Of a DNA stretch of 64,000 nt, positions 1-15,756 are shown piece after piece. Source of the DNA: a virus; the IMG/VR virus record IMGVR_UViG_3300045988_092303; one strand, 5' to 3'. A program made the position numbers and the translations under genes. Positions within the stretch are counted from its first letter, which is position 1, and each line of letters starts with the position of its first letter. Under the pieces are notes generated by a model. That model did no database searches. It saw nothing but the letters and a program-made list of their open reading frames with translations, and was not told where the DNA came from.

Positions 1-51
1 AAGTAACACCACCGGGGCGGGCAACCGCCCCACATGAAAGGAGAAGGAAAC

Positions 52-231
52 ATGAGAAAAAATATAAACCAGATCACAGCTGACAAGCTGGATAAAATGG
101 AGCTATCAGAAAGGGCTAGAAATATCATAGCACAGACGGATATAAACGTCATGGAAGAGTGTTTCGGAGGACTGGAGACAGCCGAAGAAGTAGAAACATA
201 TATCCGGGAAGAATACCCGGAAGAGGAATAA
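52..231 (+). CDS. small acidic hypothetical protein
   Basis: ORF track 34..231; GGAGAAGG Shine-Dalgarno favours ATG at 52; no recognisable motif. Confidence 0.4.
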   Translation: MRKNINQITADKLDKMELSERARNIIAQTDINVMEECFGGLETAEEVETYIREEYPEEE

Positions 232-255
232 AAAGCAAAGAGAAGGAGAAGGAAA

Positions 256-567
256 ATGGCAAACTGGAAATTGAACTTTGAAAAATTAGAAAATGCATTT
301 AAAGAAGCGAGAAAAAACGGTTATGAGCCGGTTTATAGGATATGCGAGGGAATAACACAGTATTCTGTTAGTGTAGATTCAGAAGCAACCGGGAAAAGCG
401 TATACAGCCAGAATACAGGCGACTGGTCGGAAATCGTGGACTTCTGCGCTACGCATTGCAACCCGGGTTATGATCTGATTTCTGGACTCGGATGCACTGA
501 TGACGAACTGACAGAAGCAACTATGAATTATATTCATAGTCTTGGCAAAAAATGTAAATACGAATAA
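256..567 (+). CDS. hypothetical protein
   Basis: 103-aa ORF with AGGAGAAGG RBS; followed by a terminator. Confidence 0.45.
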   Translation: MANWKLNFEKLENAFKEARKNGYEPVYRICEGITQYSVSVDSEATGKSVYSQNTGDWSEIVDFCATHCNPGYDLISGLGCTDDELTEATMNYIHSLGKKCKYE

Positions 568-573
568 TAAAAA

Positions 574-598
574 AGCAGCGGTTTCTAGCTGCTTTTTT
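574..598. terminator. intrinsic terminator, possibly bidirectional
   Basis: AGCAGC-loop-GCTGCT hairpin with A-run upstream and T-run downstream. Confidence 0.6.
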
Positions 599-835
599 AG
601 TGAAATAATGAATTTTCAACTCAACGTTTCCAGCAGGGCAGAAACGACACACAGCAACCCCATGCGCTGCTGATAGGCTCCTGCATGATCTGGCAACCAT
701 GCAGGAAAGAAAGTACCCAAATTATAAATAATTCGGAATAACTTCACCGATTAAAAAATATCACATTTTTTGATTTTTGTCAACTTCTTAAGCCGTCCAG
801 AAATGGGCGGTTTTTCTATGCCAGGATGATAATAG

Positions 836-980
836 TTATATATAAGAATATTATATAAACATGCTATATAACAATTTATATGAATATTTATATAAAAATT
901 TATATATACATTTATATAAAAAAGATATATAATAATTTATATAAGTTGCTTATATAAGAAATCTATATAAATATTTATAT
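836..980. repeat. array of about 12 direct TATATAA-core repeats (12-13 bp period)
   Basis: Reading the sequence: gttatatataaga/atattatataaac/atgctatataaca/atttatatgaat/atttatataaaa and so on, ending at the RBS of the 999 ORF. Confidence 0.8.
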
Positions 981-998
981 GCTATGGAGGGCGAAAAG

Positions 999-1244
999 AT
1001 GGCAAATACAGCAGATTACACAAGAAGAGCTATTGACAAATACCGGGCGAAATTCGACATTATACAGATCAAGGCACCGAAGGGAACAAAGGAACGTATA
1101 ACAACGTTGAGCGGTCAGAGCATGGCGGCTTTCTGTTTGCAATGCGTTCTTGATCGTCTGGACGAGCTGGAAAGATCAGAAACGGCACCGGAACATGAAC
1201 AACCAGCAAATACACCAACGAATAGCAAAGCAGACCAGCGGTAA
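999..1244 (+). CDS. putative ribbon-helix-helix type DNA-binding protein
   Basis: GGAGGG RBS then ATG 999; short basic N-terminus (ADYTRRAIDKYRAKF) followed by helices; sits between two repeat arrays. Confidence 0.45.
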   Translation: MANTADYTRRAIDKYRAKFDIIQIKAPKGTKERITTLSGQSMAAFCLQCVLDRLDELERSETAPEHEQPANTPTNSKADQR

Positions 1245-1299
1245 AAATTCCGGTTTAGGTCTGCTTTTTGTGTGCAAAAAACCGGCAGTCCTCGCGCGA

Positions 1300-1416
1300 A
1301 TAATATAAACCTTTTATACAGTCTATAAGTATATATAATATATAATACGTCTATAGATCTATGGGTCTTCTGAGGTAAAAGTAGTATATATATTTATATA
1401 TAGGGCAGTATATAAG
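1300..1416. repeat. second, more degenerate TATATAA/TATAA repeat array
   Basis: aatataaacc, ttttataca, ctataagtatatataatatataatacg, tctatagatc, tagtatatatatttatatatagggcagtatataag. Confidence 0.6.
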
Positions 1417-1439
1417 ACCGGAAGATAAATAAAATAGTA

Positions 1440-1468
1440 TTGACAAATTGAAAGATTATGGATATTAT
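1440..1468 (+). promoter_or_regulatory. sigma-70/sigma-A type promoter
   Basis: TTGACA (1440-1445), 17-nt spacer, TATTAT (1463-1468). Confidence 0.6.
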
Positions 1469-1474
1469 TATAAC

Positions 1475-1634
1475 TAAATTAAGCCGAGGCGCGCAGGTTC
1501 TCCCGGAGTCCGTAGAGGGATAAAAGAGCCGATCAACGCGAGAGGAAGCAAGAGCAAGGACGGACAGAAACACAAGCAAAGTGAAGCACGCTCGTAGATC
1601 AGACTTTAACAGGTCTTTTCTACGGGCGTTTTTT
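1475..1634 (+). ncRNA. conserved 5' leader RNA, copy A, ending in an intrinsic terminator
   Basis: No ORF. Terminator stem CGCTCGTAGA (1589-1598) / TCTACGGGCG (1619-1628) plus T-run. Shares ordered sequence blocks with 30594-30744. Confidence 0.55.
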
Positions 1635-1667
1635 ATTTCCCGGAAATCACAGAAGGAGGTGCAGAGC

Positions 1668-2336
1668 ATGGAAAAAGTAGAGGATTGCAAAGCGGATCCG
1701 GAAATATTTGAAAATGACATTGACATGTATTTGCAGATCTTCTGCGAAAACCAGAAGCCGCCCATCGAGGATCTGACGAAAGCAAGTCAAAGTGTTTGGA
1801 ATGCAGCGCTAATGTATGTACATAGACATGTATTTAAGAATCGGGAATATTTTAGAAGCACTGAAAATATACAGGCCAATAATAAAGCCCCCATCAGTAA
1901 TTATTATATATATAACTATAATCTAGTAAATGATGTATGTGATTATTATATATATCTATGTATGCAATATGAGAAAGAAATAAGTATATTAGGATTTAGT
2001 AATTTAACAGGTATTCCAGATAGCACAGTTTACGACTGGGGATATAATCCACAGAGACAACTAAGCCGTGTAGGCTCGGATATTTGCAAAAAGTTGCAAA
2101 AATACAACGAGGAAAGTCTGGAAAATAAACTTGCATCAGGCAAGGCGAACCCAGTGGGAGTTATCGCAATTCTCAACCGTCGTCACGGCTGGGCGAGTCC
2201 ATACACGGCAGATAGCAACCGCCAGAGGGCGCAGGCATTAACAGCAGATCAGTTGCCGCAATTGGGACAGAACAACAAAGGACTACCAGACAAAACGCAA
2301 GATATTGTGGATAGCGGAGACGAAGCCACGATATAA
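1668..2336 (+). CDS. putative terminase small subunit / packaging DNA-recognition protein
   Basis: AGGAGG RBS and ATG 1668. HTH-like segment (ILGFSNLTGIPDSTVYDW) and C-terminal ANPVGVIAILNRRHGW resemble TerS families. Gene contains TTATATATA motifs. Confidence 0.45.
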   Translation: MEKVEDCKADPEIFENDIDMYLQIFCENQKPPIEDLTKASQSVWNAALMYVHRHVFKNREYFRSTENIQANNKAPISNYYIYNYNLVNDVCDYYIYLCMQYEKEISILGFSNLTGIPDSTVYDWGYNPQRQLSRVGSDICKKLQKYNEESLENKLASGKANPVGVIAILNRRHGWASPYTADSNRQRAQALTADQLPQLGQNNKGLPDKTQDIVDSGDEATI

Positions 2337-2539
2337 ACGTAAAGAAAAGGCACGATATTTTTTTACATTGTCAAAACATGTGAGAAATTGTGGAAAATGA
2401 CGAACAGAACCGGGAAAGCCGGAGAGAATAACCGGGGGAGGGGGTCTGGCAGATCAGCGAAAACCGCCCTACTAAGTCCCCCAAATTTCCCAAAAAACAA
2501 AAAGGCCTCCTGCATAAGCAAGAAGCCAATTCAGAAAAA

Positions 2540-2710
2540 CTATTTGTTTGGACTTGATACAGAATCCAGATAAGCGGTGATGGCCTTGTCAAGTATTTTT
2601 GAAATAGGCACACCAGATTCCGTAGAATAAGATTTAAGTTTTGCATTAACATCAATAGATAATGTACTTGAAAATCTGACTCTATTTTTTAATTCGCTGT
2701 CATTAGGCAT
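2540..2710 (-). CDS. ribbon-helix-helix (CopG/Arc-like) protein, 56 aa
   Basis: Below the ORF-track size cutoff. AAGGAG RBS 7 nt before the ATG. MPNDSELKNRVRFSSTLSIDVNAKLKSYSTESGVPISKILDKAITAYL fits a beta-strand plus two helices. Divergent from the recombinase gene. Confidence 0.55.
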   Translation of the reverse strand: MPNDSELKNRVRFSSTLSIDVNAKLKSYSTESGVPISKILDKAITAYLDSVSSPNK

Positions 2711-2821
2711 ATAGACACTCCTTTCCGTAAACTTATTTAATTTTATTGCAATATGTGCTTGAAGTCAACAATGACATATGGTATACTTAATTAAGGTTAA
2801 ATAAGAAAAGGGGATAAAACA

Positions 2822-3394
2822 ATGAAAGTAGGATATGTCAGAGTCAGTACAGTTGAGCAGAATGAGGCAAGACAGATAGAAGGACTGCAAAAGTACGGGA
2901 TTGATAAATGGTACATTGAGAAAGTTTCTGGCAAAAATACAAATCGGGCGAAACTACAGGAAATGATTTCGACACTCCAGTCTGGAGACACGGTTTATAT
3001 CCATGATTTTTCTAGGCTTGCCAGATCGACCAGTGATCTTCTGAAAATGGTTGAAGAATTGAATAGTCGTGGTATCCACCTCGTCAGCAACAAAGAAAAC
3101 ATTGACACATCAACACCTACTGGAAAACTGATGCTTACTATGATTGGCGCGATAAATGAATTTGAGAGAACAAACATGCTGGAGCGTCAGAAAGAGGGAA
3201 TAGCAATTGCCAAGCGTGAGAACAAATACAAAAACTGCGGCAGGAAGAAAAAAGAGCTTGATGGTGAGTATGAATCCTTGATTCAGAGTTATGTGGACGG
3301 AGAAATTAGCAAAGTGCAGTTGGCGGTAATGATGAATGTATCAAGGCCAACATTGAACAGGATTTTGAAAGATTATGGGGGAAAAGAAGAATGA
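2822..3394 (+). CDS. small serine recombinase (resolvase/invertase family)
   Basis: MKVGYVRVSTVEQN catalytic Ser motif, central resolvase core, C-terminal HTH (SRPTLNRILKDYG). Confidence 0.9.
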   Translation: MKVGYVRVSTVEQNEARQIEGLQKYGIDKWYIEKVSGKNTNRAKLQEMISTLQSGDTVYIHDFSRLARSTSDLLKMVEELNSRGIHLVSNKENIDTSTPTGKLMLTMIGAINEFERTNMLERQKEGIAIAKRENKYKNCGRKKKELDGEYESLIQSYVDGEISKVQLAVMMNVSRPTLNRILKDYGGKEE

Positions 3395-3846
3395 TGGATT
3401 TGTCAAATAAGTGTTTTATCACAGAAAATTCAAATGAAAGTGAAAAACTCCTTCGTCTTGCGGTTTCGCTTGGATATTCATTACCGAAAGGCTTAAAGGT
3501 TCTTGCTTCTGGCAGAATCTTTAAGTTTACAGGATATCCGTACAAAGCGGTTACTTGTCCTGAAATGGCACCAGATAGTGCACTTTACTATTCTGAAGCT
3601 TTTGGGGATGAGGATATGGAACTGAAAGACATAATTTCAAGAGCAACACGTTTTTGCAGAGCACATGGATACAACACATTAAGATTGTATGCAGATGAAA
3701 CAGATGAAAATTATACCGGAAGTGCTTATGCAAGAACGGCTGACGGAGGTTCTCTGAAATCTGATTGCATTATACCGAAACCAAGAAGAGTAACGCTGGA
3801 AGAAATTGAAAAACGTTTTGGATGTCCAATTGAAATTGTATCGTAA
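3391..3846 (+). CDS. hypothetical protein
   Basis: 151-aa ORF overlapping the recombinase stop by 4 nt; no motif recognised. Confidence 0.5.
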   Translation: MMDLSNKCFITENSNESEKLLRLAVSLGYSLPKGLKVLASGRIFKFTGYPYKAVTCPEMAPDSALYYSEAFGDEDMELKDIISRATRFCRAHGYNTLRLYADETDENYTGSAYARTADGGSLKSDCIIPKPRRVTLEEIEKRFGCPIEIVS

Positions 3847-3862
3847 TAGGAGGCATAGACAA

Positions 3863-4243
3863 ATGACCGGAAGTGAATATCAGAGATTAGCAATGAGGAC
3901 AAATGACAGGAAATCAAATGACAGGCTGTTTGAAGCGTCTGCATCAATACATCAGGAATGTAAAGACTTTGGCGGAATCTTAAACGTCTGCCTTGGATTG
4001 TCTGGTGAAGTTGGAGAGTTCAACGACATGATTAAAAAGTGGGTGTTCCACGAAAAAGAACTGGACGTTGAACACGCAAAGAAAGAAGCTGGAGATATTT
4101 GCTGGTACTTGGCAATGCTGTGTGAGTCTTTTGGCTGGAGCTTGGATGAAATCATGCAAATGAACGTAGATAAGCTGAAAGCACGTTATCCGGAAGGCTT
4201 TGACACGTACATTGCTAATCACCGGAAAGATGGGGATGTATAG
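3863..4243 (+). CDS. mazG: MazG-like nucleotide pyrophosphohydrolase
   Basis: TAGGAGG RBS then ATG 3863. EYQRLAMRT...LSGEVGEFNDMIKK...EAGDICWYLAMLC...NVDKLKARYPEGF matches the MazG four-helix fold. Confidence 0.8.
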   Translation: MTGSEYQRLAMRTNDRKSNDRLFEASASIHQECKDFGGILNVCLGLSGEVGEFNDMIKKWVFHEKELDVEHAKKEAGDICWYLAMLCESFGWSLDEIMQMNVDKLKARYPEGFDTYIANHRKDGDV

Positions 4244-4404
4244 TGAAGATCGGGAACAAAGAAATCAACGATGAATGCCAGAACTGCTCGGAAGTCCTAC
4301 AATGCGAACTGTTCCGGCAGGGTCATGGAATTGGCAGACAGCGTGAGAACGTAGCAGAAATGATTATCTGCCAGTTAGAGCATCAGGGAAGATGCAAGAA
4401 GTAA

Positions 4405-4476
4405 TGGGCTATCGCCAAGCGGTTAAGGCACAGGACTTTGACTCCTGTATCCCCGGTTCGAGTCCGGGTAGCCTAG
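4405..4476 (+). tRNA. tRNA-Gln (anticodon TTG)
   Basis: Manual cloverleaf: acceptor TGGGCTA/TAGCCTA, anticodon stem CAGGA/TCCTG, loop CTTTGAC, T arm CCCGG-TTCGAGT-CCGGG. Confidence 0.85.
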
Positions 4477-4746
4477 TTGGGGACTTTGGGGTGTCCCCAG
4501 AATGGATTCTTTCCATTGTTTGGCTTCTCCTTTCCCCACTAGCGGAAAGCTGATTAAAGAGCCGTCGCAAGGCTCGGTGGGGTTTTAGGTTTTGCTGTGG
4601 TAGTTTCCTTGGTGTGAAGGAGTTCGCCAAAAAGAATCACAGCAGGCGGTTTAGTAGATGCGCGGCGCGTTGAAAGATTGTCTTAGTTGGCAGCTACGTA
4701 AAAAGCTGTAAAATGCATATGTCAGTTGCGCAGGCATATGCAATCT

Positions 4747-4818
4747 TGGAACATAGCTCAGTGGTAGAGCTTCCGGCTTATATCCGGAGAGTCCCGGGTT
4801 CGATTCCTGGTGTTCCAA
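4747..4818 (+). tRNA. tRNA-Ile (anticodon TAT)
   Basis: Acceptor TGGAACA/TGTTCCA, D arm GCTC-AGTGGTA-GAGC, anticodon stem TCCGG/CCGGA with loop CTTATAT, T arm CCGGG-TTCGATT-CCTGG. Confidence 0.8.
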
Positions 4819-4822
4819 TTCT

Positions 4823-4912
4823 GGGGAAGCGGCAACGATTGGCGGTGTTGCAGCTGACTGTAAATCAGTTCCCATGTGGTAAACAATGGAGGTTCAATTC
4901 CTCTCTTCCCCA
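4823..4912 (+). tRNA. tRNA-Tyr (anticodon GTA), long variable arm
   Basis: Acceptor GGGGAAG/CTTCCCC, anticodon stem GCTGA/TCAGT, loop CTGTAAA, long extra arm, T loop TTCAATT. Confidence 0.8.
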
Positions 4913-5087
4913 CTTTGCAGAAATAAAATAGAGCGTGAGATACGGTAGCGGCTCAAGGTATTGCGTAAATATACAAGTCAGGTAAACAGCTGGGTGATAC
5001 CCTACCGATAAACAGCAGAAAATCATAACGCGTGTCCCTGCTTGCAGGTGCTGACTAACTGCTGCATAGTATCATTTCTGCAATCAA

Positions 5088-5171
5088 GCAGTGTTCCCAT
5101 AATGGTATTGGAGCCGGTTGCTAACCGGCCGGCGTTTATTCGCCCTGCAGGTTCGAATCCTGCACACTGCG
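5088..5171 (+). tRNA. tRNA-Ser (anticodon GCT), long variable arm
   Basis: Acceptor GCAGTGT/ACACTGC, anticodon stem GCCGG/CCGGC, loop TTGCTAA, extra arm GGCG-TTTATT-CGCC, T arm GCAGG-TTCGAAT-CCTGC. Confidence 0.8.
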
Positions 5172-5269
5172 TTTCGGTCAGATATGACTGAAACAGTCTG
5201 GGAGAGCCGACAGGACTTAAAATTGGAGAGCTTGCGTAAGTCACGCTAAAGATCATTGTTGCAACGATG

Positions 5270-5342
5270 CCTACGATAGCATAACTGGAAATGCCACGGA
5301 TAAGCATCCGGAGATAGTGGGGTTCGATACCCCACCGTAGGA
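5270..5342 (+). tRNA. aberrant tRNA-like gene (non-canonical anticodon arm; possible pseudo-tRNA)
   Basis: Good acceptor (CCTACG/CGTAGG), D arm (GCAT-AACTGGAA-ATGC) and T arm (TGGGG-TTCGATA-CCCCA). The 17-nt anticodon region ACGGATAAGCATCCGGA only folds as a 4-bp stem with a 6-nt loop, or 5 bp with a tetraloop. Confidence 0.4.
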
Positions 5343-5557
5343 CGAGGTCATAAGGTTACAAGGTGCGCCGATGACCTAATAAACCCAAGCGAACCTGAGT
5401 TTTGGCAACGATTTTGACTTAAAAATCGAACGCGCAGAGGAATGTAGTAGAGGCGGAGAACTGCGAGAACAACGTACATCCGAGGTAAGGCACAAAGAGT
5501 TGGGATGTGCCAAAGCTCTCTGAGTGAGTAATCGGTGGTTTATGAGAGCATAAAAAT

Positions 5558-5641
5558 GCCAACGTGCCCGAGCGGTAAAGGGAGCGGTCTTGAAAATCGT
5601 CTGTCAGAAATGGCTTGTGGGTTCAAATCCTACCGTTGGCG
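5558..5641 (+). tRNA. tRNA-Ser (anticodon TGA), long variable arm
   Basis: Acceptor GCCAACG/CGTTGGC, anticodon stem GCGGT/ATCGT, loop CTTGAAA, long extra arm, T loop TTCAAAT. Confidence 0.8.
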
Positions 5642-5694
5642 TTCCCATTGGGTATCACGAAATCCTACCAAAATTTCAAAATGGAGGTGCAACC

Positions 5695-6147
5695 ATGATA
5701 AGTGAATTTGTTGAATATGTTAAACAGGCATGGAAGAATAAGCCAAATGTCAGCAGTCCATTGAATGCAGACCGTCTGAATCATATGGAAGATGGAATTT
5801 GGAACAATTATGGAAAGATAAAAGAAATCATTGCAGAACTCGTTTCTTTGAATGTTGATATTGAATCTATTATAAATCCAAACGGTGCAGAAAACGGTAC
5901 AGAACGTTGGTGCAGATATGTGGTTTTAGGAGATTTGGTACTTGCTTTTTGCCACCTTGAATTACTTTCGCAGGCAGCAGCATACACAACTGGTGTAGGC
6001 GTTCCGGCTCCCAAGAATGGATCACTTAATGTTAAGGATGAAACGGCAACATACTCTTTTCAAATAAATCAAAACGGCGTTTTTCAAAATTCTGTCGTGC
6101 TTCCCGCTGGAAAATACAATGTGTTTGCTGCTTATTTAAAAGCTTAA
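5695..6147 (+). CDS. tail-fibre-N-domain-like protein, paralog 1
   Basis: GGAGGTG RBS then ATG 5695 (track start 5590 lies inside the tRNA). N-terminus FVEYVKQAWKNKPNVSSPLNADRLNHMEDGI is a motif typical of Gram-positive phage fibre proteins. Confidence 0.55.
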   Translation: MISEFVEYVKQAWKNKPNVSSPLNADRLNHMEDGIWNNYGKIKEIIAELVSLNVDIESIINPNGAENGTERWCRYVVLGDLVLAFCHLELLSQAAAYTTGVGVPAPKNGSLNVKDETATYSFQINQNGVFQNSVVLPAGKYNVFAAYLKA

Positions 6148-6163
6148 AAATGGAGATGCAAAA

Positions 6164-6622
6164 ATGTTAGAAAATTTTGTGAAATATATTAAACAAGAAT
6201 GGAAAAATAAACCAGATACATCTACCCCTCTGTCAGCTGATAGGCTGAATCATATTGAGGGGGGGGTAAAAACTAATTCGGATGCAATTAACGAAATTAT
6301 TACTGGCGTTGCGAATTACAGTTCTGATGAAACGGAATGCGGTACATGGAAAGGAAAACCGCTGTACAGAAGAATCTTAGAACTTACTGACGCAACAGAC
6401 AGGAAAAATTACGATTTTAAAAAAATTATTGGGTCTGTAACAGTTGTGAAAACAGTTGGTCATACGGCTCAACCGAATGGAAACTTTGTTCCGCTCCCAT
6501 ATTATTTGAATGATAGAGACTATGCCGCATATTATATCAGTTCGAGCCTACTTTTTACTTATCGCTGCGGAGGATCGTATGGTGCCGGAGATGTGGAGTT
6601 GGAAGTATACTACACGAAATAG
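6164..6622 (+). CDS. tail-fibre-N-domain-like protein, paralog 2
   Basis: N-terminal 45 aa homologous to the 5695 ORF (FVKYIKQEWKNKPDTSTPLSADRLNHIEGGV); divergent C-terminus; similar upstream RBS region. Confidence 0.55.
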   Translation: MLENFVKYIKQEWKNKPDTSTPLSADRLNHIEGGVKTNSDAINEIITGVANYSSDETECGTWKGKPLYRRILELTDATDRKNYDFKKIIGSVTVVKTVGHTAQPNGNFVPLPYYLNDRDYAAYYISSSLLFTYRCGGSYGAGDVELEVYYTK

Positions 6623-6667
6623 TAGCTTACATCTCGAAACGGACGGCATAGGTGGAAGGGAGAAAAG

Positions 6668-6904
6668 ATGTTTAAAAGACTTTTCAATTTTTGGATTCGG
6701 CGGAAAACGAAGAATCTCACCAGGATTCCGCTGTTTACCATGGTATTTGATTACCGGAAGTATCAGCGAGATGGCAAGCCGGGGAGTTGCACATTTTACG
6801 CGCACCCGGACATTGCACAGGATGAATTTGTGAAAGAGAAACTTGGCGAAGTTGTTGACCATATCCGGGACAATTACGATCTGGATATTTTTACGAGGAT
6901 TTAA
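6668..6904 (+). CDS. hypothetical protein
   Basis: 78-aa ORF with GGGAGAAAAG RBS. Confidence 0.4.
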   Translation: MFKRLFNFWIRRKTKNLTRIPLFTMVFDYRKYQRDGKPGSCTFYAHPDIAQDEFVKEKLGEVVDHIRDNYDLDIFTRI

Positions 6905-6905
6905 G

Positions 6906-7172
6906 ATGAGCATGGCAGAAGTAATTGAGAGCATAGAAAAAGACATGTGGCGAGATTTGGAGAGTCGGAGCGTACCGGAAGAACAGATGGAAGTGATTGA
7001 TTGTACGACTTTAGGAGAAGAGCCAAATTCACAACATATTTGTGGAAGAATATCTGGGAATTATTCTTCAAAAGTGCCGTGGATAAGTGAAAATTCAATG
7101 CCGGAAGAACTTAGAAGATGTGTCGAAGAGGCATTGAAAAAAGGCATTGCTCAACATGCAGGCATTACATAG
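6906..7172 (+). CDS. hypothetical protein
   Basis: GAGGA RBS 6 nt before ATG 6906; acidic 88-aa product. Confidence 0.4.
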   Translation: MSMAEVIESIEKDMWRDLESRSVPEEQMEVIDCTTLGEEPNSQHICGRISGNYSSKVPWISENSMPEELRRCVEEALKKGIAQHAGIT

Positions 7173-7265
7173 AGCGTGACGGAGAATGTTGCAATGCGGA
7201 TTCTGACTACTGCGGTGGCTTCAGATGTTTAAATGATTCATGTGAACATTGGGAGGGATGGAAAA

Positions 7266-7562
7266 ATGGAAAAGTATAGAAAAAAGCCAGTTGTCGTAGA
7301 AGCGTTTCGGTATGACGGCGATCTGATTTACTCAAATGGTGAATGGTACTGCCCAGACTGGGCTAGAGATGCATTCCAGAATGGAACCATGTATTTTGAT
7401 TCTCTGGACTGCGAGGAACCGCCGGTAGAGCTGTTCATTGACACGCTGGAAGGTAAACACCATGTTTCTGTTGGAGATTTTATTATCCGTGGCGTTCATG
7501 GTGAACTTTATCCGTGCAAACCGGATATTTTCGCAAAGACATATGAGCTTGTAGAAGAGTAA
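7266..7562 (+). CDS. conserved phage protein of unknown function
   Basis: MEKYRKKPVVVEAFRY...GDFIIRGVHGELYPCKPDIFAKTYE resembles a widespread small phage protein family. Confidence 0.55.
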   Translation: MEKYRKKPVVVEAFRYDGDLIYSNGEWYCPDWARDAFQNGTMYFDSLDCEEPPVELFIDTLEGKHHVSVGDFIIRGVHGELYPCKPDIFAKTYELVEE

Positions 7563-7580
7563 ATTGGTGGAGGTATAAAA

Positions 7581-7985
7581 ATGTTTACATTAGGACAATG
7601 GATTGTTTTAGGAGTTTTATTATTAACAGGAATTGCTGTTGGTATACTTCTTTTTCTGGCCTGCGATAGCAAAACGGCAGGAATTGTAACTATTATCGGT
7701 ACTGTGGTAATTGTTGGAGCGTTGGCATTTGGAATGAACTGGTACAATACATCAACTGCCAGTGGAATAAGAGGACTGAAAGACTTTAAGTCTGAACTGA
7801 CAAACGGAATTGAACGGGAGATTACGATAACCGCAGAGGATGGACGGGAAATCTTTCACTATCAAGGAAAAGTTGATGTAGAAAGCGATCATACCGACAA
7901 TTACATTAAATTTGAGAGCGAAGAAGGAAAACGGTACTTGATCTATTATGGTATTCAGGACACTATAACGATTATTGAAAAATGA
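7581..7985 (+). CDS. membrane protein
   Basis: Two N-terminal hydrophobic helices followed by a soluble domain; GGAGG RBS. Confidence 0.5.
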   Translation: MFTLGQWIVLGVLLLTGIAVGILLFLACDSKTAGIVTIIGTVVIVGALAFGMNWYNTSTASGIRGLKDFKSELTNGIEREITITAEDGREIFHYQGKVDVESDHTDNYIKFESEEGKRYLIYYGIQDTITIIEK

Positions 7986-8000
7986 AATGGGAGATAAGTG

Positions 8001-8264
8001 ATGAAAAACTTAGAAAATTGGAAAGAAGTAACAAAAGGACTATACAGGTATGTAATTGGTGCAAATGTAGCATATGAAATCCATGTGCTGTTTTGGGATC
8101 ATGCAACGGATATTAAGACGGCAAAATCCAGTTTGTTTTTAGTAGGTGAATGGAGAACAAAAGCTGGCAAAAATACAACGGAGCGTGAATGTTTACTTTC
8201 TGAACAGCCGTTATTTGAATGTCTTGCAAAAGCTTTTGAAGATAATGAAGAAAACAATCAATAA
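8001..8264 (+). CDS. hypothetical protein
   Basis: 87-aa ORF with GGGAG RBS. Confidence 0.4.
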   Translation: MKNLENWKEVTKGLYRYVIGANVAYEIHVLFWDHATDIKTAKSSLFLVGEWRTKAGKNTTERECLLSEQPLFECLAKAFEDNEENNQ

Positions 8265-8301
8265 GTAATTATTACCTGCTGCAAAAAAAGGGGGAATTAT
8301 T

Positions 8302-8526
8302 TTGCAAATTGTTTTAATTACATCATCAATCTGTATTTTGTTTATTTTTTGTTACTGGATCTTTGATAGAATCATTACCGCAAAAAGACTAAAAGAGAAT
8401 CAGATTGCTTGGGATGAATATAGCCGAAACATGAGTAAATCCGAAAAAGACGCTTGCTACCTTGAATGGTGCAATGAACGCAAAATGCAAATGGGATGGA
8501 GTGCTTTTTATTTTCCACAAAAATAA
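8302..8526 (+). CDS. small membrane protein
   Basis: TTG start after GGGGG RBS; N-terminal TM helix (IVLITSSICILFIFCYWIF). Confidence 0.4.
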   Translation: MQIVLITSSICILFIFCYWIFDRIITAKRLKENQIAWDEYSRNMSKSEKDACYLEWCNERKMQMGWSAFYFPQK

Positions 8527-8593
8527 AAATGTGATTAAAACAATTATCGGCTGATAAAAGATGTGACAACGGTTAGTTAAAAAGGAGACAAGC

Positions 8594-8773
8594 ATGCTTA
8601 CTAAATTTAATCGTTTTGCTATTTTTCCCAAAATGTGCAACTCATGTCATGGATACATATTTCTGGAAAGATATCGTAGAGCAGATGTTTTTCATCATTT
8701 TGCAGATGTTCCTAATGGGCATCCGTTTTGGAAAGAAAATATTTGCCAGGAATGTATAAAAAAGTATAGTTGA
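8594..8773 (+). CDS. zinc-ribbon protein, 59 aa
   Basis: Below the track cutoff; AAAGGAG RBS; CNSC...CQEC cysteine pairs. Confidence 0.4.
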   Translation: MLTKFNRFAIFPKMCNSCHGYIFLERYRRADVFHHFADVPNGHPFWKENICQECIKKYS

Positions 8774-8845
8774 AACAATTACCGACTGAATATTGATTCA
8801 GCCGCTAACCTAGAAAAATTATAGGCAGAGGTCTTACAAGCACCT

Positions 8846-10654
8846 TTGCTTTTTGAAAGTGGAGGTGCTTTTCTATTGGCATCTGAAAATCTGAAACAAA
8901 CAATCCAAGGATACGAAAATTATATACAGTCGCATGGCATAGATGAGACGGTCATTGAGGCATACGTAGAAGCCTGTTCCGTGGCTATAAATAATGAAAA
9001 GGATACAGAATACGGCTTGCAACTCACAAAGCGGTCTAAGGAGCTTATAGAGCGTTACTGCATGGATCAGACCGGTGGGACGATCTGGGATCTGGAAAAA
9101 TATGCACAGGACAGCAGCAGTTCTTTCCAGCTAATCAACCAATATTATGAGATTTTAAAGCTTGAAACTTTTTGGAGCTTTGAAAGTTTCATGTACTACA
9201 TGGAGAAGAAGAGACCATACGGGAAGCGTTTTTATTATCCCAGAAGGAAATCACTTGGAATTGTAATAAAAGATCTGGAAGATCTGGAAAATAGAGTTAT
9301 TAAATTCTATGGGCTTTCAATGCCGTCTCGTGTCGGTAAATCTACAATTTGTATATTTTTTCTTGCGTGGATAGCTTTAAGGCGTCCAAATAGCCATTCA
9401 GCTATGGGCGGACATTCTGGAATACTGGCAAAGGGATTCTATAAAGAGTTAATGAATCTTTTCACCACAGAAGAATATACCTTTGCGGAGCTGTTTGCAT
9501 TTTGGCATCCAGAATATGCAAAAAGAGCATTACCCACAGACAAAAGTGCGGATGAATTTACGATTACGCTTGGCGACCCGGATAGATTTGCGACCGTTAC
9601 TTGTCGTGGTATTGATGGTACTTGGACTGGTGCAGTTGACGTATCAAAAGACGGGTATCTGTATGTGGATGACCTTGTAAGGGATCGTGAACATTCATTA
9701 AGTCCTATGCGAATGGAAAACACATTTCAAGAATACCTAAACAAGATGGTAGACCGTAAAAATGATGGTGCTAGGGAGCTTATGGTCGGTACTCTTTGGA
9801 ATGTTCTTGACCCTCTTGAAAGATTAAGAAAACAGTATGATGGAAACCCGGAATATAGATTTAGACGTATACCGGCGCTTAACGATAACGATGAAAGTAA
9901 TTTTGACTATGAAATAAATGGATTTTCAACAGCATATTACCGTGATATGCGTGAGCGCCTTGATAAAGCGGAATGGGAAGCTAAATTTATGCAACGACCG
10001 TTTGTACGAGAAGGACTTCTTTTCCCAACGGATGAGCTGCGGTACTTCAACGGCATTCTTCCGGATGGTGATTTCAGAAGAATCGGTGTTACGGACATTG
10101 CGTGGGGCGGAGGGGACAGTTTGTCAATGCCTATCGGAGCTGAATATGAAAACGGAGATGTCTACATTTACGACTGGGTGTTTAACGGAGGTCCGAAAGA
10201 AGTTACGGTTCCGCTAGTTGTCGGAAGAATCGTAGGAAATGAGATTAGGCAGACGCGTTTTGAAGGAAATGTCGGTGGCGATCTTTATTGTCAGTATGTT
10301 GACGAAAAATTACAAGACATTGGCTATAAATGTTCTTGCACAAGCAAAAAAGCTCCAAATAAAGTTGAAAAGTTAGCAAAAATCATTGCTTATTCTGGAG
10401 ACGTAAAGAGAAAATTTATTTTTTTGGAAAGCAAAAGGCCTACGCAGGAAGAACTGCAACGAGATGCAGATCTTGGAATTGTAAGATACCGAAGGAATGA
10501 TGAGTACCAGAAAGCAATGGACGAGCTGACTATGTTTGTAAGCATTGGTGGCAATGATCATGACGACGCGGCAGATGCATTAACACAGCTTGAAATGTTT
10601 ATTGAAAATCCGCTTGCGATCAGAAAAGCAACAATTATGTCAAGCCCGATTTAA
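8846..10654 (+). CDS. terL: terminase large subunit
   Basis: Walker A-like SMPSRVGKST, DD-type Walker B (YLYVDDLV), C-terminal nuclease-like region (HDDAADALTQ). True start may be TTG 8876 after GGAGGTG. Confidence 0.85.
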   Translation: MLFESGGAFLLASENLKQTIQGYENYIQSHGIDETVIEAYVEACSVAINNEKDTEYGLQLTKRSKELIERYCMDQTGGTIWDLEKYAQDSSSSFQLINQYYEILKLETFWSFESFMYYMEKKRPYGKRFYYPRRKSLGIVIKDLEDLENRVIKFYGLSMPSRVGKSTICIFFLAWIALRRPNSHSAMGGHSGILAKGFYKELMNLFTTEEYTFAELFAFWHPEYAKRALPTDKSADEFTITLGDPDRFATVTCRGIDGTWTGAVDVSKDGYLYVDDLVRDREHSLSPMRMENTFQEYLNKMVDRKNDGARELMVGTLWNVLDPLERLRKQYDGNPEYRFRRIPALNDNDESNFDYEINGFSTAYYRDMRERLDKAEWEAKFMQRPFVREGLLFPTDELRYFNGILPDGDFRRIGVTDIAWGGGDSLSMPIGAEYENGDVYIYDWVFNGGPKEVTVPLVVGRIVGNEIRQTRFEGNVGGDLYCQYVDEKLQDIGYKCSCTSKKAPNKVEKLAKIIAYSGDVKRKFIFLESKRPTQEELQRDADLGIVRYRRNDEYQKAMDELTMFVSIGGNDHDDAADALTQLEMFIENPLAIRKATIMSSPI

Positions 10655-10670
10655 GTATGGAGGAAAGTTA

Positions 10671-11087
10671 ATGGAAACAAAAAAATACCTTGGCCAGATC
10701 AAAAGATATGACTGTATGATTGCAAATAAAATCGAGGAGATCAAGAATCTCCGTGCAACACTTTATGGAATGCCGTCACTCTCCGGCGGAGAACGTGTGC
10801 AGACATCCGGCACAAAGGACATTGTTGGCAGCGGAGCACCTAAGATTGCTGATATGGAGTCAGAAGTGCGTACTCTCTCACGGAAAAGAGAAGAGATTGT
10901 TCGACAAATTGAGAAAATCCCGGATACGGACATGTATGATGTACTGGCAAAGCGGTTCGTGCTGGACAAAGATTTTAAGGTAATCAGCGTAGAAATCAAA
11001 AAATCAAAGCGTCAGACGTTTTTCATTTACGATAATGCTATTGATATGTTTGAAAAAATGTTTGGATACCTGTACATGGGAGACTAA
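10671..11087 (+). CDS. sigma-70 region-4-like / DUF1492-like phage transcriptional regulator
   Basis: ATG 10671 after GGAGGAAAG. YLGQIKRYDCMIANKIEEIKNL and a C-terminal HTH-like segment (MYDVLAKRFVLDKDFKVISVEI). Confidence 0.4.
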   Translation: METKKYLGQIKRYDCMIANKIEEIKNLRATLYGMPSLSGGERVQTSGTKDIVGSGAPKIADMESEVRTLSRKREEIVRQIEKIPDTDMYDVLAKRFVLDKDFKVISVEIKKSKRQTFFIYDNAIDMFEKMFGYLYMGD

Positions 11088-11195
11088 CCGCACAAAAATG
11101 CACTAAATAGCATAAAAACGTGTATTTTCTTTGAAAAATAAGTAGTATACAATATGATTGTAAAGTTTTAAGAAACTTTTCTCCCATCGGTAAGA

Positions 11196-11232
11196 GAGAG
11201 CATTGCTGGAAACGGCAGTGCTCTTTTCTTTT
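11196..11232 (+). terminator. intrinsic terminator/attenuator upstream of the Com-like and portal genes
   Basis: GAGCATTGC (11198-11206) / GCAGTGCTC (11215-11223) stem plus TTTTCTTTT; preceded by TTGAAA-16-TATGAT at 11131-11158. Confidence 0.55.
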
Positions 11233-11250
11233 GCAGAAATGAGGAAAATT

Positions 11251-11448
11251 ATGGAATACAAGCCAAAAACAATATATTGTCCACGGTGCGGCAGGAAAGT
11301 TGCTACATGGGACGGACGTTCTTCTATGCCGGTGATCGGCAGGTGTAAGAAATGTAATAAACGAGTTGTCTATTACGTTGACAACGATGAAACAGAAATT
11401 AAGAACATGCCGGGAAGAAATTGCTCTTCCGGAGTCACGTATTTGTAG
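11251..11448 (+). CDS. Com-like zinc-finger protein
   Basis: IYCPRCGRKVATW...GRCKKCNKRVVYYV resembles Mu Com-type CxxC...CxxC zinc fingers. Confidence 0.5.
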   Translation: MEYKPKTIYCPRCGRKVATWDGRSSMPVIGRCKKCNKRVVYYVDNDETEIKNMPGRNCSSGVTYL

Positions 11449-11457
11449 AGGTGTGAG

Positions 11458-13002
11458 ATGGCAAATCCGGGAAGAAAAATAATATGGACTGATGAACCAG
11501 AAATTACATATGAAAATGTTATTGATGTTCTCCGGGATGCAATTCTTGTCCATACTGCGAACGCACAAAGAATCCAGTTCCTTTTAGATTATGACGGTGG
11601 AGATCAGCCGATCATACGAAAAAAGCCAAAAACATACAGACCGGACATAGACTGCCGGTGCAATGATAATGTTGCGCATCAGGTTTCTAACTTTTGGACT
11701 GGATTTGGTTGGGGAAATGCTATAACGCTTGTCCAGAATGGAGACGGGAAAGATCAATACGTATCGGATGGCATTTCTGAGCTTAACAAGCAATACGATC
11801 TGGTGAAAATCCGGGCGAAAACACAGGAGCTTGGACGCTTTGTTGAAATCGGTGCATTGTGTTACATCTATGTTGATACAAATATGAATTGGATGGAAGG
11901 AAAAAGCTATTTTACGCTTGATATCCTAGATCCCAGAACCTCTTTTGTAATCAGATCAAATTATTATCCTGATAAACGTGTAATGCTCGGGGTCACTTAT
12001 CGTTGCGATAAAAGAGGAATTAAGCATTATACCTGCTTCACACCGGATGCTCGTTATGAAATCTCAGAATGGGAACATGCAGAACGAAGCGGAGAGTTAA
12101 ATCCGCTTGGTATGATACCGATTGTTGAATACATCAGATCGTATGATCGCATGGGTGTGTGGGAGCATCAGATTTCGGAGATGGACAATCTGAATTTGCT
12201 CATTTCAGATTTCTCAAATGATGTTGAGCAGAACACGCAGGCTGTATGGCACGCAAACGATGTTGATTTTCCTGTTAAGCAGGAAGTCATCGAAGAAAAA
12301 GACGGAACAAAGAAGTCTGTGGAGGAAGTTGTAAAACCAAAGTCTGGAGAATGGCTTAGTACATTCACTTCCCCTGACGGAAAGACTCCGTTTGTTAAGG
12401 CTCTGTCGATTGATTATGACTACGACGGAATGCTGAATGCAATACAATATCGCAGGAATAAAATTCTGGAAAAATGCAACGTTCCCCTCACAAGTGACAA
12501 TGCATCAAACATCACAGGAGTGGCAGCGAGCAATGCTTCCGGATGGGATCATGCGGAAGCGGCAGCATCAAAGCAGCAGATGATCACAGAAAGTTGCAAA
12601 CTGGAAGAAGTTGAAGTTGTTCTTGCGGCAATAGCAAACAATCCAAACCTTCCAGCTGACAGCCCGTTAAAGAAAATCACTCCGGCAGACATTGAAGTTA
12701 ATGTGAAACGTCAAAAACTGTATGAGCTGTCAACGAAAGTAAACAGTGCTGTAACACTTATAAAAGCTGGATTTGATGGAGGAAAGGTATTAAATGCCAT
12801 TCCGATTTTTGACGATCCTAATGAAGTGTGGGATGCCAGCAAAGAAACGGTGAAAAAAATCCAAAACAGCGGAATCTCTCAAGACGCAATCACCGGAGAT
12901 GATATAGAACCGGAAAAACCAAATTCTGACAGGATAATGCAGGATTTATCAGATCAGGTTACAAACAGTCCACTGATTGATAAAAGCAGAGCTGAGAAAT
13001 AA
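11458..13002 (+). CDS. portal protein (SPP1 gp6-like)
   Basis: 514 aa, downstream of TerL, followed by a Mu-F-like gene; size and order typical. Confidence 0.8.
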   Translation: MANPGRKIIWTDEPEITYENVIDVLRDAILVHTANAQRIQFLLDYDGGDQPIIRKKPKTYRPDIDCRCNDNVAHQVSNFWTGFGWGNAITLVQNGDGKDQYVSDGISELNKQYDLVKIRAKTQELGRFVEIGALCYIYVDTNMNWMEGKSYFTLDILDPRTSFVIRSNYYPDKRVMLGVTYRCDKRGIKHYTCFTPDARYEISEWEHAERSGELNPLGMIPIVEYIRSYDRMGVWEHQISEMDNLNLLISDFSNDVEQNTQAVWHANDVDFPVKQEVIEEKDGTKKSVEEVVKPKSGEWLSTFTSPDGKTPFVKALSIDYDYDGMLNAIQYRRNKILEKCNVPLTSDNASNITGVAASNASGWDHAEAAASKQQMITESCKLEEVEVVLAAIANNPNLPADSPLKKITPADIEVNVKRQKLYELSTKVNSAVTLIKAGFDGGKVLNAIPIFDDPNEVWDASKETVKKIQNSGISQDAITGDDIEPEKPNSDRIMQDLSDQVTNSPLIDKSRAEK

Positions 13003-13625
13003 TGGAACATGAATTTGACGAACTGAATAATCCAAAGAGCAGAGCAATTCCATATGAGCAGTATTTTGGGGAGATGGAACTGACGGAAGAACAGAAAGAA
13101 GAGAGGATAAAAGCATCTAAACGTATTGAAGATATGATGCTTTTTCTTTTTTCTTTACTTTCAGTCATGAAAGAATATTCCTACGAAAATTTAGAATTTG
13201 TTGTTTCGCAAGTAAAAAATCAGTATTCCGATGTTTTGTCCGTAAGCATGGAAATGGATGAATACTTAAATGGGTACGTGAATGATTTTTCCGAGCAGAT
13301 CGTAGAAACAACACAAAATCATATGGATGATGAATGGTATCTTTCAGATGACCGGGCAATGTTTGTTGCGGAGAATGAAGCAAATACGACGTTTAATTAC
13401 CTGGAATACAAAAAAGCTATTGAGTCCGGGAAGAAAAAGAAAAGGTGGATCACCATGCGTGACCGCCATGTAAGGAATACACACCAACTTGTTGAAGGAA
13501 AAACCATTGGAATCAATGATGTTTTCCTTGTTGGTGACAGTGAGATGTTTTATCCCAAAGACACAACATTCGGTGCGAGTGCACGTGAAATCGTGAATTG
13601 CAGATGCTCAATTAAATATTTTTGA
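13002..13625 (+). CDS. minor head / head morphogenesis protein (Mu F / SPP1 gp7-like)
   Basis: C-terminal RHVRNTH...EIVNCRCSIKYF is typical of the Mu-F family; follows portal. Confidence 0.75.
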   Translation: MEHEFDELNNPKSRAIPYEQYFGEMELTEEQKEERIKASKRIEDMMLFLFSLLSVMKEYSYENLEFVVSQVKNQYSDVLSVSMEMDEYLNGYVNDFSEQIVETTQNHMDDEWYLSDDRAMFVAENEANTTFNYLEYKKAIESGKKKKRWITMRDRHVRNTHQLVEGKTIGINDVFLVGDSEMFYPKDTTFGASAREIVNCRCSIKYF

Positions 13626-13629
13626 CACG

Positions 13630-13659
13630 AAACCGCTGATTCTTATTGGCGGTTTTTTA
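13630..13659 (+). terminator. intrinsic terminator
   Basis: AACCGC...GCGGTT hairpin followed by TTTTTT. Confidence 0.6.
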
Positions 13660-13739
13660 TATGCCCCAGAGAAGGGGCAGAAAAAATATCGCAAGAAGTT
13701 AGAGAAAACTTAAATCGCAGAAAGAAAGAGGTATGAATC

Positions 13740-14327
13740 ATGGCAGACACTAACACTACCACTACAACAACTAAGGCAGCTGAAACGCAGGTAAACACAG
13801 GGCAAGAGCCAACCACTACTCAGGAGAATGAAACAAAGACTCCAACTGTAGAAGAACTTATGGCGCAGCTGGCCAGCGAGAGGGCAGAGAAAGAGAAATA
13901 TAAAAATGCTTCTGACAAAGCAAGTTCCGAAGCTGCTCAGTACAAAAAACAGTTACGTTCCAAGCAGACGGCAGAGGAACAGGAAGCAGAAGCAAAAGCA
14001 GAAGCTGAACGCTTGCAGAACGAAAGGTATGAGAACGCAATTAAAGAGCTGAATCATATGAAAGCTGTATCTGCTTACAAGAATGTTTCTGAAAAATCTA
14101 TCGAAACCCTGATTGAAGCTGTTGCAGAGGGAGATCACAGTGCAATTGCCACAATTATTGACAACGAAGTAAAAGCGGCGGTCACTGCTGCAAAAGCGGA
14201 ATGGATGAAAACAAGACCGGCTGTAAATGCAGGAAAATATTCATCCATGACACGTGAGCAGATCATGGCAATTTCAGACAGAGATGAAAGATTAAAGGCT
14301 ATCGCTTTGAACCCAACTTTATTTTAG
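13740..14327 (+). CDS. scaffolding protein
   Basis: Thr-rich N-terminus then charged coiled coil (EQEAEAKAEAERLQ); immediately upstream of capsid. Confidence 0.65.
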   Translation: MADTNTTTTTTKAAETQVNTGQEPTTTQENETKTPTVEELMAQLASERAEKEKYKNASDKASSEAAQYKKQLRSKQTAEEQEAEAKAEAERLQNERYENAIKELNHMKAVSAYKNVSEKSIETLIEAVAEGDHSAIATIIDNEVKAAVTAAKAEWMKTRPAVNAGKYSSMTREQIMAISDRDERLKAIALNPTLF

Positions 14328-14339
14328 GAGGAATATTAA

Positions 14340-15440: not shown

Positions 15441-15444
15441 TCGA

Positions 15445-15756
15445 ATGTATAAGGTAATCAGATTTTTCACTGATTTGCAAGACAATGATTATCCGTATAA
15501 CGAGGGAGATATCTTCCCTCGTGACGGATTATCCGTATCTAAAGAGAGATTGGTTGAGCTTTCCAGCACCAACAATAAGCAGAGAGAGCGTCTTATTGAG
15601 CTTGTCGTTGATGAAGGAAAGCTTACCAAAACAGAGATCAACCGGATGCCCGTATCCGATCTTCGGAAGATGGCATCTGACAGCGGAGTTGAAAATGCGG
15701 AAGCAATGACCGGCTCTGAATTAAAAACGTATCTCATTCACCTCATGGGTCTGTAG
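15445..15756 (+). CDS. Rho-N/SAP-like head-region protein
   Basis: C-terminal LTKTEINRMPVSDLRKMASDSGVENAEAMTGSELKTYL resembles a Rho N-terminal-like motif. Confidence 0.4.
   Translation: MYKVIRFFTDLQDNDYPYNEGDIFPRDGLSVSKERLVELSSTNNKQRERLIELVVDEGKLTKTEINRMPVSDLRKMASDSGVENAEAMTGSELKTYLIHLMGL

Follow-up and report, generated by a model that had tools for sequence, protein, structure and literature searches.

To our knowledge, antitermination systems based on RNA are few, namely put, EAR and the conAn2 RNA. The put RNAs of phage HK022 cause factor-independent, processive antitermination through the β′ zinc-binding domain of RNA polymerase, and the EAR element of Bacillales forms an Rfam family of its own, located within or ahead of eps and capsule operons. 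We know of essentially no charted account of how temperate phages of gut Clostridia control their early and late genes. HK022 putL and putR lie downstream of PL and PR and act in cis on the polymerase, with no dedicated protein evident (PMC9378689), and the conAn2 RNA alone works on nearby terminators (PMC8191782). Here we analyse a stretch of 64,000 nucleotides (nt) from the IMG/VR viral record IMGVR_UViG_3300045988_092303 (hereafter, the window), in which two related leader RNAs, copy A and copy B, each stand between a promoter and the start of an operon. They belong to an undescribed family of structured leader RNAs of human-gut Firmicutes phages, which is real and well supported, and which is a new member within a known kind, the promoter-proximal terminator-control RNAs.

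In its logic the element comes nearest to HK022 put or lambda nut. With put it shares two paralogous structured RNAs per phage, promoter-proximal at operon heads and ahead of terminators; the likeness is one of layout and not of homology, as we find no sequence or Rfam relationship. The put RNA is about 70 nt in length and consists of two adjacent stem-loops with no pseudoknot, whereas the 5′ domain described here, of about 95 nt, is a single interrupted hairpin plus a loop–tail pseudoknot. The put RNA also lacks the conserved adjacent terminator that is present here, and it serves only the early operons of a lambdoid coliphage, whereas the present element also heads a late operon that begins with a TerS-like gene.

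Both copies open with a near-consensus promoter; the transcript then begins with a structured domain of about 95 nt, which a variable, A-rich linker joins to an intrinsic terminator with a long stem. From promoter through terminator, copy A spans positions 1440–1636 and copy B positions 30559–30745 (Table 1). The copy A promoter is the top-scoring promoter match within positions 1–20000. A 12-mer, GAGCAAGGACGG, occurs exactly twice in the 64 kb (at 1552 and 30669), as does an 11-mer, GAAGCACGCTC (at 1583 and 30693; 0.4 occurrences expected by chance, with 4 of 100 shuffles reaching two), and GGGCGTTTTT is found exactly at 1624 and 30734. The folding energies of the full RNAs are −45.7 kcal/mol (z = −2.5) for copy A and −56.9 kcal/mol (z = −4.2) for copy B. 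A covariance model (R1) trained on four B-type sequences, with its structure set by hand and copy A excluded, recovers copy A (Table 1); a search of the window with the refined model (R2) gave no third copy at E ≤ 1. Downstream of the terminators lie a ribosome-binding site and an ATG (1668) in copy A and a gene start at 30776 in copy B.

A preliminary description of this DNA had proposed two paralogous promoter–leader–terminator copies with shared blocks in the same order, terminator stems that pair in both and, in copy A, a strong intrinsic terminator after a leader that has no open reading frame (ORF). Every element that it listed was recovered in place or close by: pairwise alignment gives the same block order in A and B, the model trained only on B-type sequences detects copy A, both terminators fold strongly, and there is neither an ORF nor a leader peptide common to both leaders. 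The limits of the RNAs needed correction, with starts at about 1475 (A) and 30593 (B), and the block GTCCGTAGAGGGA (copy A) or GTCGTTGAGGGGA (copy B), although present, is the loop of helix P3 plus the 3′ strand of that helix. The main architecture, a long P0–P3 hairpin and a loop–tail pseudoknot, had not been part of that description.

Constrained single-sequence folds gave the same architecture in every sequence type. Helix P0 (2–3 bp) is followed by P1 (4–7 bp), an internal loop with a near-invariant AG, and P2 (5–6 bp); beyond P2 lie a 3′ bulge, P3 (GCCC/GGGR) and a loop of 11–14 nt. The core of this loop, GCCGU, pairs with ACGGC within the invariant tail GAGCARGGACGG, and the resulting pseudoknot has 5–8 uninterrupted base pairs in each of the 50 distinct sequences that were analysed. 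Copy A has GUCCGU/ACGGAC where UGCCGU/ACGGCA is found elsewhere, which is a compensatory difference, the G-to-U change in the loop being matched by a C-to-A change in the tail (GC in 48 cases, UA in 6). Pairing of the pseudoknot in the model-derived alignment is 94%, with one compensatory change, and both this value and the GC and UA counts are independent of the fitting because the pseudoknot was not included in the model. In the same alignment 93.5% of cells pair, compared with 38–44% when the partners are slid (a second alignment agrees), 24 of the 33 pairs vary on both sides, and the observed values were reached in 0 of 500 shuffles; these cells come from many close relatives and are not independent events, and for the nested helices the counts come from an alignment that had itself been fitted to them. 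P1 and P2 show three to five pair types per position. The helices covary, and the invariant nucleotides cluster in the pseudoknot and the tail. RNAalifold on plain MAFFT alignments gave the terminator only, and the 5′ domain derives from the constrained folds and the hand-set seed structure. An alternative closing helix that appeared in the first minimum-free-energy folds, between a GCCG at the 5′ end and CGGC of the tail, was rejected because the tail change in copy A is compensated in the loop and not at the 5′ end. One member, L228, carries an extra small hairpin, GCCAGCUAUUGGC, inside the P1/P2 internal loop (about 478–492), a site of tolerated variable insertion.

Table 1 Positions of the two leader RNAs, their parts and the adjoining genes in the window
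Feature	Position	Strand	Evidence or detail
Copy A promoter	1440–1468	+	−35 TTGACA 1440–1445, 17-nt spacer, −10 TATTAT 1463–1468; near-consensus sigma-70, 11/12 matches
Copy A RNA element (5′ domain, linker, terminator)	1475–1635	+	R1 62.8 bits, E = 3 × 10−11; R2 118.7 bits
Copy A stacked hairpin	1483–1546	+	Constrained folds, column mapping, covariation counts
Copy A helices	P0 1484–1485/1544–1545; P1 about 1490–1493/1537–1540; P2 1496–1501/1525–1530; P3 1502–1504/1517–1519		
Copy A P3 loop	1505–1516		12 nt
Copy A pseudoknot, 5′ strand	1508–1513	+	GUCCGU in the P3 loop, pairs with ACGGAC 1560–1565
Copy A conserved tail	1552–1565	+	GAGCAAGGACGG 1552–1563; holds pseudoknot 3′ strand ACGGAC 1560–1565
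Copy A terminator	1589–1634	+	18-nt arms 1589–1606 and 1611–1628; base CGCUC/GGGCG; U-tract 1629–1634; −22.0 kcal/mol
Small Arc-like ribbon–helix–helix (RHH) protein gene, upstream of copy A	984–1244	+	Sub-threshold fold support: AmrZ E = 0.24, Arc E = 0.58
TerS-like gene, first after copy A	1668–2336	+	Pfam GP3_package E = 1 × 10−5, below cutoff; 67 related loci
Copy B promoter	30559–30587	+	TTGATA (30559), 17-nt spacer, TATAAT, TG ahead of −10; 11/12 matches
Copy B RNA element	30593–30745	+	R1 183.7 bits; R2 145.2 bits
Copy B stacked hairpin	30601–30662	+	Constrained folds, column mapping, covariation
Copy B helices	P0 30602–30603/30660–30661; P1 30606–30609/30655–30658; P2 30614–30619/30644–30649; P3 30620–30622/30636–30638		
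Copy B pseudoknot, 5′ strand	30626–30633	+	UUGUCGUU, 8 bp with GACGGCAA at 30676–30683
Copy B conserved tail	30669–30683	+	GAGCAAGGACGG plus pseudoknot 3′ strand
Copy B terminator	30699–30744	+	Arms 30699–30716 and 30721–30738; U-tract 30739–30744; −26.6 kcal/mol, 19 pairs
Ant/BRO-type anti-repressor gene, first after copy B	30776–31498	+	phrog_130, E = 1 × 10−72
int-alpA RNA (RF02996), second terminator-like RNA at the start of the copy B operon	31552–31618	+	47.5 bits

The terminators have the hallmarks of intrinsic termination, namely a GC-rich hairpin followed immediately by a U-tract, with compensatory change in the stem. Across the family they have 13–19 pairs, −16 to −27 kcal/mol and 5–7 U residues (6 in both window copies), and these stems are long in comparison with those of Bacillus, which are typically 9 ± 2 bp (PMC10325885). 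The upper stem covaries, and the basal CGCUC/GGGCG and the U-tract are invariant; the earlier observation that the upper stems of A and B differ in sequence and still pair extends to the family, in which both partners vary at 8 of the 12 terminator pairs of the model. Two scans without a terminator requirement tested whether the invariant terminator is an artefact of the search pattern. When only the 5′ motif and the tail were required, 18 of 18 true elements carried GGGCGTTTTT; when only the loop and AAGGACGGC were required, leaving GAGC and the terminator free, there were no further members. Apart from elements with the terminator, the two scans gave chance matches only. Between tail and terminator the linker is rich in A, spans about 13–31 nt and shows no sequence conservation. 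The preliminary description had also suggested an antiterminator in which CCGUAGA of the P3 loop pairs with the 3′ arm of the terminator. This pairing is strong in the A-type subfamily (−16.6 kcal/mol) and weak in copy B (−6.9 kcal/mol), and it fails as a feature of the family, given that non-cognate pairs (−10.9 kcal/mol) and shuffled loops (−11.1) do as well as cognate pairs (−11.9).

The leader recurs in IMG/VR with relatives of the 222-amino-acid protein encoded downstream, and its sequence falls into several diverged types. A degenerate tail-plus-terminator pattern identified 65 viral loci in IMG/VR, many of them on contigs with two copies. A scan of species genomes gave mostly chance matches and, after filtering with the model, added three more: a Lachnospiraceae contig (L226), a contig of a Christensenellaceae metagenome-assembled genome (MAG; L228) and a 31-kb contig that was binned as Alphaproteobacteria and is probably a phage (L210). 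The 53 distinct full-length members of the family come from gut-phage contigs of IMG/VR and from three MAGs, and a contig often carries two; R1 recovers every locus, and R2 scores the members at 92–148 bits. The covariance-model search of related phages thus shows that the element is kept outside this genome with strong covariation.

The element had initially been placed in no recognised class, and our searches agree. At gathering thresholds, the 4,227 models of Rfam 15 matched only tRNAs and the int-alpA RNA at 31552 in the whole window, and no match overlapped the elements in 14 related loci. Scans of both copies at E ≤ 10 returned only spurious eukaryotic microRNA and long non-coding RNA matches and one match to a hepatitis C virus cis-element, all far below gathering scores; none of the Rfam riboswitch, EAR/epsC or C4 (RF01695) models matches either copy. 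There was no blastn match in GenBank phages and no description of the element in our literature searches, and exact-block scans of IMG/VR with GCAAGGACGG...GAAGCAC and a longer version gave chance coding matches only. In Clostridium phage Maintenon, the closest cultured phage by TerL (40% identity), the element is absent from bases 1–50000 of the 57-kb record, including the region upstream of TerS.

All 53 members have a promoter that matches the consensus at 10–11 of 12 positions and ends 4–13 nt before model position 1, and the RNA is therefore the very 5′ end of its transcript. Wherever downstream sequence is available, the terminator is followed by a gene on the same strand or by an int-alpA RNA. 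The proposal that the leaders are cis-regulatory RNAs or antiterminator targets therefore stands as a candidate assignment, for elements that are conserved with covariation and always lie between a promoter and the start of an operon. A-type copies always precede the TerS-like gene. The assignment of that gene is tentative, as its Pfam match lies below the cutoff; the layout agrees with it, as the window continues with an invertase, a MazG-domain protein, six tRNAs, TerL, portal and structural genes, and Clostridium phage Maintenon has the same TerS–tRNAs–TerL order. The tRNA genes (4405–5642, between the TerS-like gene and TerL) are predicted to be Gln, Ile, Tyr, Ser, Ser and a further one whose anticodon loop is aberrant (5270–5343), and the protein with a MazG nucleotide-pyrophosphohydrolase domain (3806–4243; Pfam, 33.7 bits) is conserved in the A-type operon of 53 related loci. 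In two related loci whose TerS is 45% identical to that of the window (L139 and L141), TerS is preceded by a promoter and a short, AT-rich leader that ends in a 10-bp terminator (about 2860–2990), and there is no pseudoknot domain. The presence of a promoter and a proximal terminator where the RNA domain is missing suggests that phages of this group generally gate their late genes by a terminator.

B-type copies precede Ant/BRO, Rha-like or KilA-like genes and/or an int-alpA RNA, with replication genes next. The int-alpA RNA follows the B-type element, directly or past the first gene, in L157 (11399–11467, minus strand), L159 (4899–4967), L161 (598–666), L166 (8002–8070, minus strand) and L188 (2319–2387), at about 22–55 nt past the terminator or one anti-repressor or Rha gene later. 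Its outer stem and U-run resemble a second terminator, and on that likeness the replication unit would open with two tandem structured, terminator-bearing leaders. Just upstream of int-alpA in the window, at 31523–31541, lies a tRNA T-arm-like sequence, GGAGGTTCGACTCCTCC, with a similar one upstream of int-alpA in L161; this may be the remnant of a tRNA 3′ end or an att-like site. Three Ant/BRO-type anti-repressor paralogues are encoded (29812–30570, 30776–31498 and 41153–41947), two of which flank copy B.

Nearly all genes are on the plus strand, and in relatives the sequence runs past the end of the window back to its start, which leads us to place copies A and B at the heads of two of three rightward transcription units. 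The phage is temperate, with a serine integrase (61499–62845) and a CI-like helix–turn–helix (HTH) repressor on the minus strand (39025–39393), next to a divergent promoter that matches the consensus at 12 of 12 positions (39454–39482). A palindrome at 39445–39469 covers the −35 of this divergent promoter, and a second HTH protein is encoded on the minus strand at 37824–38591. A comparison of the immunity region with the promoters of both copies revealed no common operator beyond an extended −35 similarity.

Most likely, the leaders decide whether transcription enters the early and late gene blocks. We tentatively favour, at somewhat less than even confidence, the reading that they are cis-acting conditional-terminator leaders in which the 5′ domain acts on the transcribing polymerase in the manner of put or nut; read-through control and its mechanism are what we infer from structure, conservation, position and the absence from Rfam, which are themselves observed. 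The gate would consist of a constitutive-looking sigma-A promoter, a domain of about 95 nt that would fold once transcribed into the P0–P3 stacked hairpin, its loop pairing with the invariant tail as a pseudoknot, a short unstructured linker, and the long-stem terminator with its invariant base. By default the polymerase would stop and release an RNA of about 150 nt, as suggested by a consensus promoter followed by a strong terminator with no promoter in between. TerS and the late genes, like the replication unit, would therefore need regulated or constitutive read-through to be expressed. With the gate open, transcription would continue into TerS, packaging and structural genes from A-type leaders, and into anti-repressor or Rha genes, the int-alpA RNA and replication genes from B-type leaders. 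The 5′ domain would act in cis on the polymerase like HK022 putL and putR, possibly aided, as happens at lambda nut, by a conserved factor of the host or the phage, and both the adjacent terminator and later ones would be suppressed.

Several features argue for put/nut-like action. Many contigs have two paralogous promoter-proximal copies, one for each lytic transcription unit, as with putL and putR. The core nucleotides are invariant while the TerS proteins fall to 26–32% identity; this would fit a partner that is itself conserved, for instance RNA polymerase or some other factor of the host. The linker is variable and there is no conserved alternative helix, neither of which would be expected of a classical switch between mutually exclusive helices. 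Finally, further terminator-like structures downstream (int-alpA in B-type units and an internal terminator at 18170 in the late unit) would profit from processive read-through. The element resembles lambda nutL and nutR in being paired at operon starts, but nut consists of boxA and a 15-nt boxB hairpin and needs N and Nus factors; the element has no boxB-like short hairpin, its CGCUC resembles the start of lambda boxA but is a terminator arm, and PHROG and Pfam scans of about 60 window proteins found no N-like protein. Like conAn (the ConAn1 protein plus the conAn2 RNA) of Gram-positive conjugative plasmids, and like EAR, it would be an antiterminating RNA of Firmicutes mobile elements that stands at the head of a long operon; however, the EAR model is not matched, and conAn2 (260–600 nt, poorly conserved and not promoter-proximal; PMC8191782) is far larger.

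Strong promoters followed by strong terminators would also yield an abundant, stable and structured RNA, so that each leader might instead be a stand-alone, trans-acting small RNA of about 150 nt, comparable to the P4 CI or P1 C4 immunity RNAs, or its terminator might insulate the preceding operon while the downstream genes are expressed otherwise. Ant genes are classically under small-RNA control in P1, P7 and P22, and as nearly all genes run in one direction each terminator would also close the unit upstream of it; long stems, moreover, resist antitermination (PMC10325885). Like P1/P7 C4 and P4 CI, the element is a structured RNA in an anti-repressor or replication leader, with a constitutive promoter and premature termination. 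Those RNAs, however, are processed and act antisense to sites in the same leader, whereas here loop and tail covary in cis in one domain, within a copy and not between copies (by inspection, the loop of A and the tail of B form only 4 bp), and the C4 model is not matched. There is no other promoter between the terminator and the next gene, which begins 25–45 nt downstream, and the strict tie to operon starts argues for cis action. We consider this explanation very improbable.

Other observations weigh against put/nut-like action. It is from sequence that we infer read-through control. The family is narrow, with about 65 loci, many of them from one IMG/VR dataset, and given this and the close relatedness of its members many covarying cells are inherited rather than independent events. 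The base of the terminator is invariant here, whereas the conserved elements of put, EAR and nut do not include a terminator, and this points to a local switch. The invariant GAGC of the tail could pair with the invariant GCUC of the terminator 5′ arm, as is seen in some truncated folds. Stems of 13–19 pairs are within the range reported to resist conAn antitermination (PMC10325885), and no known antiterminator protein (Q, N or NusG-like) was found among the window proteins scanned, which did not include every ORF.

These points bear on the main rival, which we regard as rather unlikely: a riboswitch-like local attenuator in which the core of P3, pseudoknot and tail binds either a small molecule or an RNA-binding protein that is itself conserved, for instance CsrA (ARGGA motif). 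Binding would stabilize the pairing of tail GAGC with GCUC, the terminator would remain incomplete beside its U-tract, and only the adjacent terminator would be read through. An aptamer upstream of an intrinsic terminator would have the same layout, and the distribution of invariant nucleotides in the pseudoknot and tail, with covarying helices, is as expected of an aptamer in general. The invariant terminator base would be explained most simply by such a switch, as the 5′ arm CACGCUC may have a second conserved partner, and GAGC:GCUC pairing indeed appears in truncated-transcript folds of L120, L145, L181 and L183. This candidate switching helix, however, has just 4 bp, is flanked by mismatches and offers no covariation by which to test it. 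Variable-length linkers between sub-domains are known from ZTP riboswitches, and the linker here matches that precedent. The ZTP, preQ1 and fluoride riboswitches also have covarying helices, invariant junction or pseudoknot nucleotides and a conserved terminator 5′ arm that perhaps overlaps the sensing domain; unlike them, the element has no clear mutually exclusive helix, controls phage lytic operons and matches no Rfam riboswitch even at E ≤ 10. The conservation of MazG in the A-type operon hints at a nucleotide ligand, as a lead only, but the gene context points to no ligand, the controlled genes being structural, replication and anti-repressor genes rather than metabolic ones. Moreover, a switch limited to the adjacent terminator would leave int-alpA, as a second terminator-like RNA, to block the B-type unit.

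The genes upstream of the A-type leaders raise a further alternative, in which a phage regulator loads onto the polymerase at the promoter or leader, as with lambda Q at PR′–6S–tR′ or with conAn1/conAn2, and the RNA domain serves as a recognition or processivity partner. The candidate regulator is the small Arc-like RHH protein encoded upstream of copy A. An RHH-like gene (motif FPKGTKERI...NAFI) lies 0.4–2.9 kb upstream on the same strand in 42 loci, representing every A-type sequence type for which upstream sequence is available, and the protein may be an associated or late-promoter regulator. Copy A does recall lambda PR′/tR′ in its constitutive promoter, its short terminated transcript and its late genes that start with packaging functions; the lambda Q gene sits at a comparable position relative to PR′, just upstream of the late unit, as the RHH gene does here. 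The order of the ConAn1 gene and the conAn2 RNA, in which the gene directly precedes the RNA and both act in cis, provides another precedent (PMC8191782). Q differs in that it recognizes DNA, the 6S RNA is without a conserved fold, and there is no Q homologue among the about 60 proteins scanned (not every ORF was included). RHH proteins bind DNA and are usually repressors; the gene is present in L141, which is without the RNA domain, and was not found beside B-type copies; and an invariant RNA core beside fast-evolving phage proteins would be unexpected for a phage-specific protein–RNA pair. The RHH fold assignment is itself no more than suggestive, with PDB and Pfam support below threshold. 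We judge control by such a protein to be improbable, and retain conditional termination by a put/nut-like RNA as the preferred reading.

Some further features of these phages were noted. L148 has a third, divergent promoter–leader–terminator unit (7218–7346, minus strand; R2 46.6 bits) about 3.6 kb upstream of its B-type element; its upper terminator stem is like that of copy B, but CCCUC/GGGGG forms the base of the terminator and the 5′ domain is different. Three AGTAT(A/T) repeats, spaced by about 30 nt, lie in the AT-rich region upstream of the copy A promoter (1330–1445); the last one overlaps the −35, and the repeats may be operator sites or a packaging- or attachment-related sequence. 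About 2 kb upstream of its A-type element, L135 carries a type II hammerhead ribozyme (795–864, minus strand; RF02276, 62.4 bits). Elsewhere in the window, the ORF at 50616–51356 contains about 23 tandem 18-nt units (50756–51175) and encodes a hexapeptide-repeat protein; there are also two HNH endonuclease paralogues (39504–40025 and 46777–47154) and tandem phrog_9958 paralogues (45397–46613).

A compact, covarying, pseudoknotted leader at both lytic operon starts provides a testable handle on the commitment of prophages to lysis, and the orphan Rfam motif int-alpA gains a defined regulatory context. The family is a candidate new class, of antiterminator RNA or of riboswitch, and could provide a portable conditional terminator for the engineering of Firmicutes. 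It is possible, although we hold it to be less than probable, that these leaders represent either a new class of RNA that alone makes the host RNA polymerase terminator-resistant or a phage-specific riboswitch class that gates the anti-repressor/replication (induction) and late packaging operons. Either way, the entire lytic programme of these temperate phages of gut Clostridia would depend on a single conserved RNA device.

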